Below are positions 3,989-7,176 of a DNA stretch of 15,479 nucleotides, piece after piece. The stretch is from Bdellovibrionota bacterium (GTDB lineage: Bacteria > Bdellovibrionota_C > UBA2361). Position 1 is the first letter of the stretch; each line of letters opens with the position of its first letter. The position numbers and the translations under genes are program-made. Under the pieces are notes generated by a model that did no database searches, was not told the DNA's origin, and saw only the letters and a list, made by a program, of their open reading frames with translations. The stretch lies in NCBI GenBank assembly GCA_044352465.1, contig JBILDU010000074.1, forward strand, positions 1 through 15,479, read 5' to 3'.

Positions 3989-4057
3989 GACCTCGCTTCT
4001 CGACCAGCGCCTGTCCATCCGAGAGAGAGTGCCTCATTAATCCGTCAGGGCGCGAAA

Positions 4058-4085
4058 TTGCAGTGCGGGTCGTGTTACATAGAAT
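4058..4085 (+). promoter_or_regulatory. Putative sigma70 promoter for nhaB
   Basis: TTGCAG (4058-4063), 16-nt spacer, TAGAAT (4080-4085). The predicted start near 4091 coincides with the 5' arm of the downstream structure. Confidence 0.55.
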
Positions 4086-4090
4086 CGGCA

Positions 4091-4299
4091 ATCCGCTCTC
4101 TATGAATTCAAGTGAGTAGTGTTTCTGCGCGGGGTCGTTCAGTAATGGGTGCCTACTCATTAGTGAAGGGCTCGTGTGGCGGGTCTTTTTTATGGTTTGT
4201 GGGTCATGATTGAGTAGAGCGGTTTGGGGAAGAGGTGACACTCGATCGCCTTGTGACGAGGCGGTCCGGTAGAAGACGCTCGGCTGTCCCCTTTTCCCC
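4091..4299 (+). promoter_or_regulatory. Structured 5' leader of nhaB (candidate cis-regulatory RNA or riboswitch)
   Basis: Stems: CCGCTCT 4093-4099/AGAGCGG 4216-4222; TTCA-AGTGAGTAG 4107-4119/CTACTCATT..TGAA 4153-4167; GGGGAAGAGGTGACA 4226-4240/TGTCCCCTTTTCCCC 4285-4299; GATCGCCT 4244-4251/AGGCGGTC 4259-4266. G-U pairs favour the + strand. Confidence 0.45.
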
Positions 4300-4325
4300 T
4301 CCCTTTCCCCCTCTCGAAATCAACC

Positions 4326-5828
4326 ATGACTCATTCTGACGGAGCCGTGCATGCTCCGAGCTCCCATTCGGGGAGCGATGCACCGCGCTGGTATATCGGC
4401 GCGCTCGGGTTCGCGATGGCGATGATCTTCCTCGTGAAGAACTCATTCGGACCGGCAGCTGCTGGGTGGCTGCTCATCCTCGGTGTGGTGGCAACGTTCA
4501 CCACGGCCCACAAGGTGTTTCCCCTGGCGGGAGCCGGTGTGCTCACGATCTGGGGGCTCCTCTTGGGGCTCACGACGGTTCAGGCGTGGGAGCACGAGAT
4601 CGAGGCGAACGTCAAAGTTCTCCTTTTGATCGCGTGCATGGTGCCAGCGATTCATTTCTTCAAAGATCTCCTCGAGGCTAGCTTCACGGCGATCCTCGTC
4701 AAGATTAAGAAGAAGGTGAATCTGGCCTTCGCGTTCTATGCCTTTGGTGCGGTGTCCTCGGCCTTTTTTGATGCACTCACCGTGGCGGCGATGGTGCTGA
4801 CCGCCCTTGGCGGGATGTACCTCACCTACGAATCGGTGCGTCACGCCGCCGAGATGAAAGCTGCAAGCGACATCGGAGATATCGAGGTTCGTAAGAAACT
4901 CGATGACTTTCGAGCGTTTCTGCGGCAACTGCTGATGGTGCTCCTCGTGGGTACGATGACGGGAGGTCTCACGACCCTTGTTGGCGAACCGCAGAACTAC
5001 CAAGTGGGACAGATGTGGGGATGGGGGTTCCAGGACTACTTCGTCCGGATGCTTCCGATCTCTGCTCCGGTTCTTCTCGGTGGTTTGGGGGTGACCTGGC
5101 TTGTCGAGGGTACTCCGGTAGGGCGCATCTTCGGATACGGCACCGAGCTTCCGGTATCGATTCGGTCGTACCTGACGCTCCAGTCAACCGAGCAGGCACT
5201 TCGGCGGACCCCCACCGAGCTCCTGCACCTCAAGGTGCAAGCTGTAGCGGGTCTTCTGCTTGTCGTCGCGCTTGGTTTGCAGCTCGCGTCGATCGGGCTT
5301 CTGGGGCTGATAACGATGATCATCGTGTCAACTGCGATGGGGAGGGTTGCGGAGACACGGTATGTGCCGGCGTATCACGCCGCTATGCCGTTCTTCGCTC
5401 TCCTGCTCGTCTTCTTCGGTGCGGTCAGCATTATCCACGAGCAGCACCTCTTTGAGGGGCTGATGCGGTGGATTGTGAGTCTGCCCGAAGGGACGCGGTT
5501 GCTCGCGATGTTTGTCGAGACGGGAATGGTAAGCTCCGTTTCTGACAATGTGTTCGTGGCGTGCGCGCACGCCTCGAATGTACAGAAGCTGATGACTGAT
5601 GGTACTCTTGATGCCGCGGCGGGTGATAAGCTTGCTATCGCTATCATCGCAGGTACCAACATCGTCAGCATCGCGACTCCCAACGGGCAAGCTGCGTTCC
5701 TGCTCGCCATCTGCTCCGAGACGGCCGCACATTTGCAGCTGCGCTACGTGCGTATGTTGTGGATGGCTTTCCCGTATACGGTGGTCCTCAGCATCATCGG
5801 TGGCGTCGCAGTCAGTCGCTGGATCTAA
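4326..5828 (+). CDS. nhaB: NhaB-family Na+/H+ antiporter (divergent)
   Basis: 500-aa polytopic membrane protein with NhaB motifs SAFFDALTV, GGLTTLVGEPQN, FGYGTELP, SSVSDNVFV, GTN..ATPNGQAAFL and YVRMLWMAFPYT. Confidence 0.9.
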   Translation: MTHSDGAVHAPSSHSGSDAPRWYIGALGFAMAMIFLVKNSFGPAAAGWLLILGVVATFTTAHKVFPLAGAGVLTIWGLLLGLTTVQAWEHEIEANVKVLLLIACMVPAIHFFKDLLEASFTAILVKIKKKVNLAFAFYAFGAVSSAFFDALTVAAMVLTALGGMYLTYESVRHAAEMKAASDIGDIEVRKKLDDFRAFLRQLLMVLLVGTMTGGLTTLVGEPQNYQVGQMWGWGFQDYFVRMLPISAPVLLGGLGVTWLVEGTPVGRIFGYGTELPVSIRSYLTLQSTEQALRRTPTELLHLKVQAVAGLLLVVALGLQLASIGLLGLITMIIVSTAMGRVAETRYVPAYHAAMPFFALLLVFFGAVSIIHEQHLFEGLMRWIVSLPEGTRLLAMFVETGMVSSVSDNVFVACAHASNVQKLMTDGTLDAAAGDKLAIAIIAGTNIVSIATPNGQAAFLLAICSETAAHLQLRYVRMLWMAFPYTVVLSIIGGVAVSRWI

Positions 5829-5846
5829 CAACCACGCCGACGGGAG

Positions 5847-6016
5847 AAATCCCTGAAAGCGTTCGGTTCCGCTGTGACATGCTCCAGGAGCTCACAGCGG
5901 GATCAGATGGGTTCTTTGAAAGGTTTGATGCGCAAGCATCCAAGAGACCTGCCATAAGCCCATCTATTTTTGCGGAGTACGATGCCAAGGTTCGCCTGCG
6001 CAGTCGGGGATTTTTT
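5847..6016 (+). ncRNA. Putative structured RNA of unknown class (multi-branched, ~170 nt)
   Basis: Closing stem AAATCCCTGA 5847-5856/TCGGGGATTT 6004-6013; 13-bp stem 5865-5877/5892-5904; stem 5905-5913/5957-5965 capped by GATGC-GCAA-GCATC; AGG-TTCG-CCT 5988-5997; ends in T6. Several G-U pairs work only on the + strand. Confidence 0.5.
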
Positions 6017-6127
6017 GTTGCAAGCTCTGTTCGACTGAGCTCGACTAGGCTGACCTCGCCGAAGTCATCGCCGAAAGCTACCCACCGGTACATACGCTCC
6101 AAGCTGCGGAGATCCGGAAACCCGGCC

Positions 6128-6173
6128 GGGCGCACTCACCGTGCGGGGCGCGACGGAGCGCCTTTCTTTGTTT
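6128..6173 (+). terminator. Possible intrinsic terminator (imperfect hairpin plus T-rich tail)
   Basis: GGGCGC 6128-6133/GCGCCT 6158-6163 with inner CCGT/ACGG, followed by TTTCTTTGTTT. The stem is bulged. Confidence 0.3.
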
Positions 6174-7176
6174 GATTAGGCCTTCGTTTTCGCTCAGGAA
6201 AATGAATGAATTTCAATCGACTGGCGCGCTTGGGTGGCGCGAGGTACGGGCTGTTTGCCTAACCTGTTCTCTCGGCCTAAAGTCTGAGGGTATGTTCTCG
6301 AGTCGCTCCGAAAAGTCGCTCCAATCGTGCGCTGCTGGTCGTCCGGCCGTCGATGCGCTGGTGTTTTCAGTACGATCGAAACAAGAGCTGCGTGAGCAGG
6401 TCGACTCTTTCTACAGGATCGCTGAGCTACGCGAGCGGCTTCAGTTGGCATACCCGTGGTGGCAGCCCACTGAGGCGCATCGATTTTTGGTCGGGGCCGT
6501 GCGTGATATCGGGGCGAGGCTTCATCCGCAAACAGAGGTGGAGTATCAGAGCGATGGGGTTCAAGGAGCGCCCCAGGTGGACCAGCCGTTGGTGGTATCG
6601 CCAGATAGGCGCGGTGTTTTGGCAACGGTGGGGGGCAGGGTCGCGGTTTTTTTCGATTTTCGGCGGAAAGCCGGGGGAACGGAAGCGAAAAATGTTTCGC
6701 TCACCACGACGGGAGCGCGCGTTTTAGGCCTTTCGGCTGAGTGCGTAGTTCTCTCGGAGCGAGCCAACATTATCGTCGAGCGAAGTCTAAAGAATGTTGC
6801 GCGGTATCTGCGGGATCAGCCGGTGGAGATTACGATCGATGGAGAGCTCGCGACCTCCCTGTGTGAGGGGCGGGGCAAAGAGTACCACGCCGAGTTTGTG
6901 GGAGCGCTCTGGGCACTCAAAGCAGCCCTATATTCTTTTCGAGATAATGAGCCGTTGCTCCGGGAGACTTTTGGAGTGATGCGGCGCAATCTGCCTGATA
7001 TGCTTACAATCTTTGCCGACGAGAACGCGTATAACCAGGTGATGTCGGGCTTTTTGATGGTCGCGCAGCGTTCGAGTACGTTTAGAAAGATCCTCCTTGA
7101 GCAGTCTTGGCTCGGATTAAAGGCCTCCGATGTGCCCCGCGGGAGGAGTGATGATGCGCCGTTCTCGAAGACATGA
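6172..7176 (+). CDS. Hypothetical protein (start uncertain: TTG 6172, ATG 6202 or ATG 6292)
   Basis: The only long ORF (up to 334 aa) filling the gap, with globular-looking composition and a stop converging on the ABC permease. No motif recognised. Confidence 0.65.
   Translation: MIRPSFSLRKMNEFQSTGALGWREVRAVCLTCSLGLKSEGMFSSRSEKSLQSCAAGRPAVDALVFSVRSKQELREQVDSFYRIAELRERLQLAYPWWQPTEAHRFLVGAVRDIGARLHPQTEVEYQSDGVQGAPQVDQPLVVSPDRRGVLATVGGRVAVFFDFRRKAGGTEAKNVSLTTTGARVLGLSAECVVLSERANIIVERSLKNVARYLRDQPVEITIDGELATSLCEGRGKEYHAEFVGALWALKAALYSFRDNEPLLRETFGVMRRNLPDMLTIFADENAYNQVMSGFLMVAQRSSTFRKILLEQSWLGLKASDVPRGRSDDAPFSKT

Follow-up and report, generated by a model that had tools for sequence, protein, structure and literature searches.

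According to PMC7821165, hairpins in bacterial 3' untranslated regions (3' UTRs) protect from PNPase-type exonucleases, and the stem-loop in the acnB 3' UTR is bound by apo-AcnB. The same review gives CpxQ, which comes from cpxP, and SdhX, which comes from sdhCDAB-sucABCD, as sRNAs derived from 3' UTRs, a well-known kind (PMC7821165, PMC9438474), and nhaB itself figures there among the targets of CpxQ and not as a gene that gives rise to a 3' element (PMC7821165).

The element described here lies at 5847-6016 on the forward strand of contig JBILDU010000074.1, directly behind an nhaB gene (the window, that is, the whole stretch of DNA analyzed, is 15,479 nt long). Its host is an uncultured freshwater bacterium of the phylum Bdellovibrionota, whose genome (GenBank assembly GCA_044352465.1, hereafter G000) is a 3.13-Mb assembly of 170 contigs that is 94.9% complete. 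Like the cis-acting 3' UTR elements of the acnB type, the nhaB element stands just past a stop codon, on the sense strand, as a stable structure that travels with its gene, and the likeness would extend, we infer, to an effect on the stability or processing of the mRNA. Unlike those single hairpins, it spans ~170 nt as a closed junction from which two long conserved arms extend, and it is restricted to one uncultured genus. With CpxQ and SdhX it has in common a position at an mRNA 3' end, and in G000 its helix followed by a run of U residues could serve as a shared terminator; it differs from them in that it has no conserved U run and no conserved unpaired seed that we could see. The reading that we favor, and to which we would give about an even chance, makes the element a structured domain, specific to the genus, in the 3' UTR of the nhaB mRNA, where it would act in cis to influence how stable the 3' end is or how it is processed.

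The nhaB Locus

The gene for the Na+/H+ antiporter B, nhaB, occupies 4326-5828 (+) and encodes a protein of 500 aa that matches the Pfam family PF06450 (NhaB; E 7.6e-113) and has 83% amino acid identity to the copy in G001, the only other member of the genus in our genome collection. The element starts 19 nt 3' of the stop codon, within a 373-nt spacer between nhaB and the next credible gene, which begins at 6202. A post-stop motif, TAACAACCACG at 5826-5836 (+), is common to both genomes (in G001 it reads TAACAACCCCG), a marginal similarity, since 3 of 300 shuffles reached at least its local alignment score. A promoter scan of 5600-6400 produced no sigma-70-like site, and a consensus scan for terminators called a canonical hairpin with a U-rich tail at 6145-6174 (+; hairpin 6145-6164), just before the next gene, which may be the true end of the nhaB transcript. 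As a canonical intrinsic terminator, taken to be a short G+C-rich hairpin with a loop of 3-8 nt and a U tract directly behind it, the end of the element at 6004-6016 was rejected: the scan called 6145-6164 instead, the helix before the U tract encloses 147 nt, and the tract itself is not conserved.

In the consensus of an integron attC site, an RYYYAAC core at the gene end pairs with a distal core, GTTRRRY. The sequence ATCTAAC overlaps the nhaB stop codon, but the + strand holds no GTTRRRY in 5829-6300, and an attC site was set aside. So was readthrough or recoding at the stop codon, the extended frames, with the sequences read by eye, being unconserved between G000 and G001.

On the other side of the gene, the 337-nt region 5' of nhaB (3989-4325) contains blocks that are conserved with G001 despite different upstream genes. 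One of them, the 19-mer CTCAYTAGTGAAGGGCTCG at 4156-4174, is invariant between G000 and G001 save at one Y position, and inside it is a near-palindrome whose perfect form, TCACTAGTGA, occurs in G001. The conserved block may serve nhaB as an operator or leader element. A pairing of the nhaB 5' leader with the 3' element was also considered and rejected, the RNAduplex energies lying inside the range of shuffles in both genomes, G000 and G001.

Downstream, the element is adjoined by a copy of a dispersed repeat (6015-6131, +) that is not part of it and belongs to a family of ~100 nt. The nhmmer profile of this family, made from five copies, gave 23 hits at E<=0.01 in G000, the five training copies included, and had no match in L016 of G001; the other copies have pairing ends, GGGCTCCG ... 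CGGAGAGCCC. An earlier note on this DNA, made from the letters of the stretch and its open reading frames, had allowed that 5847-6016 might itself be a small repeat or MITE. It does resemble REP/BIME and MITE-like repeats in being intergenic, rich in hairpins and beside a gene end. Unlike them, it is single copy, and the repeat reading belongs to the neighbor at 6015-6131 instead. The genomic BLASTN search that the note had proposed returned only the element's own locus, and no second copy in G000 was found by BLAST, by R1 (a covariance model built from the G000 element alone) or by nhmmer at E<=10, whether the whole element, hairpin A or hairpin B was used.

Beyond the repeat lies an ORF of 324 aa (6202-7176, +) without a Pfam family, whose homologue (47% identity) was found, among 31 genomes including G000, in G001 only, on a different contig from nhaB. 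The element lies upstream of this ORF and on its strand, and the helix and U run that finish it in G000 would suit a role as 5' leader, riboswitch or attenuator for the gene. However, the DNA upstream of the G001 homologue has no similarity to the element, which stays with nhaB; a repeat copy and the terminator-like site come between the element and the ORF; and Rfam provides no match to a cis-regulator. We consider such a leader very improbable.

Predicted Fold of the Element

Folded as + strand RNA, 5847-6016 reached a minimum free energy (MFE) of -75.1 kcal/mol with a z-score of -5.67, and none of 200 shuffles was as good; the opposite strand gave -58.5 kcal/mol and a z-score of -3.22. The earlier note had argued for structure beyond chance with a bias to the + strand, and these values bear it out. 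The + strand folds better than the - strand because of its G-U pairs, which make up 8 of 59 pairs on the + strand and 3 of 55 on the other. The fold was the same when 355 nt were folded.

The architecture, in both MFE and centroid structures, is a multi-branch junction. It is closed by a helix of 10 bp (5847-5856/6004-6013) and an inner helix of 4 bp (5859-5862/5998-6001), the 5' halves of which occupy 5847-5862 (+) in the MFE and centroid folds alike, while the 3' halves (5998-6001 and 6004-6013) and a run of six U residues (U6, 6011-6016) make up the end of the element at 5998-6016 (+) in the MFE fold. Within the junction, hairpin A (5865-5904, +) has a 13-bp stem (5865-5877/5892-5904), a 3-nt bulge and a 4-bp apical stem (5881-5884/5888-5891) with a 3-nt loop, and hairpin B (5905-5965, +), a long and interrupted arm, is capped by a GCAA tetraloop (5932-5935). 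The remainder (5966-5997, +) is a variable third arm and linker, AUUUUU and then a weak hairpin (5972-5976/5991-5995) that is missing from the centroid. The 10-bp closing helix, which is evident in the sequence as well as in the MFE, the 13-bp stem, the interrupted arm with its GCAA loop and the terminal U6 had each been picked out in the earlier note and are all present. Its UUCG hairpin was not confirmed: neither UUCG makes a tetraloop in the MFE fold, and the third arm (5972-5995) is weak.

The nhaB flank was also compared with 170-nt stretches at an equal offset behind 1,935 long ORFs of G000, among which it took 49th place by raw energy and, once the energies had been regressed on G+C, 4th place (residual z -3.5). 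Among the ORF 3' flanks of this genome that fold more stably, per 170 nt, than that of nhaB are those of C168:60397-61261 (-; -93.2 kcal/mol), C80:2123-3125 (+; -84.2 kcal/mol) and C117:22901-24638 (-; -96.3 kcal/mol).

Conservation within the Genus

In a collection of 124 species genomes of the phylum, nhaB is present in 4 and the element, by covariance model, in 2, G000 and G001. The evidence for its conservation consists of three sequences, these two and a variant from a metagenome run (X18). The 4-kb contig of G001 that carries nhaB has nothing but that gene in common with the whole G000 genome (tblastx, E<1e-5), and the genes on both sides of nhaB differ between the two. Yet the blocks in the leader and hairpins A and B are kept, from which it follows that the element travels with nhaB and not with the neighbors. 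In the alignment of hairpins A and B between G000 and G001, none of 300 shuffles scored as high, whereas the region downstream of hairpin B was not significant (62 of 300). R1 found the syntenic site as its best match in the G001 genome, at 18.2 bits and an E-value of 0.03 per genome.

When the G001 region was folded by itself, the arms and the helix that closes around them came out again (z -4.1, -4.9 and -6.4 in three sequence frames). The G001 helix reads UCUGA-G-CGU ... GCG-A-UCAGA as against CUGA-AA-GCGU ... GCGC-AG-UCGG in G000, and in the G001 MFE and centroid folds it is made with the same core letters, CUGA..GCGU / GCG..UCAG. The junction in G001 has four arms, an extra 5' hairpin, hairpin A, hairpin B and a short GNRA hairpin, and no U run comes after the closing helix. 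Hairpin B has kept its basal stem nearly unchanged, and its middle and apex differ in letters yet stay paired. In hairpin A three pairs are changed on both sides in a model-fitted alignment, and in an unfitted MAFFT/RNAalifold alignment of the two genomes 6 of 29 predicted pairs are changed on both sides and still paired. Compensatory counts for helix 1 were disregarded because its alignment was forced, R1 not having chosen the G001 closing helix that is seen in the folds. The earlier note had listed a 3' UTR element and a new sRNA among its possible explanations, and both gained support from the structure being kept directly 3' of nhaB in G001 and from the overlapping ORFs being non-coding (see below).

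A scan for NhaB found four loci in the genome collection (83, 58, 35 and 45% identity) and two in metagenomes (38-40% identity), and at these loci R1 made no credible match apart from G001. At the locus with 58% identity (L022), 199 nt are available 3' of the gene and seem to differ from the element. In an order-level relative (G036:C140:203-1573; L017/L018), the nhaB homologue is in two pieces, matching query residues 3-311 and 352-497 and 6 nt apart, and may be a frameshifted or rearranged gene. Another observation concerns G001 itself, in which ~1 kb downstream of nhaB, on the far side of a convergent ORF of 260 aa, a short hairpin (L016 384-412, -) carries the sequences of the two halves of the G000 closing helix, TCCCTGAA and GTCGGGGATTT. 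Taken singly, neither match exceeds chance (E 0.27 and 17), and, as the two sides of one hairpin, they are not independent of each other.

The third variant, X18, comes from a lake metagenome, in which a 35.9-kb contig can be aligned to 5703-6300; the alignment has 82 substitutions and 15 gaps. Positional counts for it are counts among the differences listed, whose substitutions reach 6124; a further 42 differences presumably lie beyond that point. Among the differences listed, the last 126 nt of nhaB have 5 changes, the element has 17 substitutions and 1 insertion in 170 nt, and the DNA behind it (6017-6124) has 17 substitutions and 7 indels in 108 nt, or about 22% changed positions. The third arm and linker (5966-5997), where X18 varies most, take 7 of the 17 listed substitutions in the element, while the 40 nt of hairpin A have, among the differences listed, a single change, in the apical loop at 5885. 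Eight substitutions among those listed fall on paired positions, and of these 5 keep the pairing and 3 break it. One compensatory pair, 5847 A>G with 6013 T>C, turns A-U into G-C, and three A>G changes give G-U pairs that are valid on the + strand only. Two of these A>G changes lie in hairpin B, in which one other change breaks a pair. The X18 variant lends weak support to the pairing. The U6 run is lost in X18 through changes at 6012, 6013 and 6016, and since it is conserved neither there nor in G001, termination at 6016 cannot be the conserved function.

These comparisons bear on the reading in which the structure has no conserved function, being a decaying remnant (e.g., of an old insertion) or a palindrome that matters at the DNA level, such as a protein-binding site. 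Its restriction to one genus (2 of 124 genomes), the dispersed repeat directly adjoining it and the rapid evolution of its third arm and U run would all be in keeping with this. Nonetheless, hairpin A has kept its pairs through two-sided changes, the middle of hairpin B is paired despite wholly different letters, the fold owes its + strand specificity to G-U pairs, and neither a second copy nor a match to the motif in a collection of viral contigs was found. A functionless structure is, in our estimation, unlikely, but somewhat less so than the leader discussed above.

The same data are relevant to a trans-acting sRNA, which would arise by cleavage of the nhaB 3' UTR or by transcription from a promoter of its own inside the end of nhaB, and which in G000 would end in the closing helix and U6. 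A discrete closed domain of ~170 nt with such an end in G000, present in single copy and conserved in the genus, is what one might expect of an sRNA, and 3' UTRs are, in the sources introduced at the outset, an established origin for them. The points against it are that U6 is lost in X18 and missing in G001, that 5600-6400 has no promoter-like site, and that no conserved single-stranded seed stands out, the most conserved letters being in stems. In G001, moreover, the nhaB stop codon falls in the 5' half of the closing helix, which fits a part of the mRNA better than a separate gene. We rate the sRNA as a tentative alternative, with perhaps one chance in four.

Comparison with Described RNA Families and Coding Sequences

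The element belongs to no RNA family described in Rfam 15. The Rfam check proposed in the earlier note yielded no family at gathering score, and at E<=10 there were only three matches, all at chance level and all on the - strand, the best of them to Proteo-phage-1 at 22.2 bits (cut-off 42). ARAGORN found nothing. A search of the viral contig collection with the motif pattern produced 0 matches and gave no indication of phage origin, and a 30-nt BLAST match in another genome (G054, E 0.002) falls in an unrelated intergenic region and was treated as chance.

The 6S RNA is rod-like, with a closing stem, a large central bubble and an apical stem, and it binds the RNA polymerase holoenzyme and templates pRNA. 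The earlier note had seen a loose likeness to it. There are grounds for the comparison in the length (~170 nt, as against ~170-190 nt) and in the closing helix that pairs the 5' and 3' ends, and the lineage has no 6S RNA detectable with the Rfam model RF00013, which matched in none of 41 genomes of this order (G000 and 40 relatives). Because the model is blind across all 41, it cannot alone decide the question, and its silence here, with no match at E<=10 in 5750-6250 and none genome-wide in G000 at E<=1, has to be read in that light. What speaks against a divergent 6S RNA is that the element is branched, a multi-branch junction and not a rod with a central bubble, that it has no RF00013 signal even at E<=10, that it occurs in a single genus and goes with a rare gene (nhaB being in 4 of the 124 phylum genomes), and that its helix in G001 overlaps the nhaB stop codon. 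The 6S likeness was therefore not upheld, and we regard a divergent 6S RNA as the least probable of the readings considered.

The earlier note had also recognized that either of two ORFs overlapping the element, 5759-6175 (+) and 5812-6135 (-), might be a conserved protein-coding gene. Neither has a Pfam family or a conserved frame, and tblastx against G001 found nothing beyond nhaB. Eleven single-base indels in the X18 variant between 5940 and 6135 also argue against coding. Small ORFs that start from an AUG at the base of hairpin B were rejected as well; they have 16 codons in G000 as against 9 in G001 and are unalike, and in X18 a base is inserted behind 5940, inside the G000 frame.

A Proposed Structured Domain at the nhaB mRNA 3' End

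In the reading that we favor, nhaB and the element would be transcribed together from the + strand, and the RNA would fold into a junction closed by one helix, with the conserved arms A and B and a variable third arm. The domain would then act in cis, possibly as a barrier to 3'-to-5' exonucleases or, in an alternative cis role, as a site at which an RNA-binding protein or a double-strand-specific RNase docks or processes the RNA. Some termination may be added in G000 by the closing helix with U6, a part that is not conserved. What runs counter to this reading is the complexity of the fold, since protection alone would call for a simple hairpin and not for a closed junction with three or four arms.

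In a further, and rather improbable, version the domain would be a sensor, one that responds to an ion, pH, a metabolite or the ribosomes that terminate at the stop codon, and that would switch the nhaB 3' end between a protected and a degradable state. The placing of the G001 stop codon inside the closing helix is relevant to the version of this reading that involves terminating ribosomes. If a sensing domain were indeed present, it would amount to a 3'-UTR riboswitch-like stability switch on the mRNA of an ion transporter.

To our knowledge, the structured 3' UTRs of bacterial mRNAs are poorly catalogued, and RNA regulation in uncultured Bdellovibrionota is almost unstudied. The reach of the present finding is narrow, one genus and three sequences, and it will be no surprise for the field: the feature is real and undescribed, and its general kind is already known. 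It would be of use in a catalogue of RNA motifs, and it is a clear candidate, single copy, strand specific and co-inherited with one transporter gene while the neighbors of that gene change.
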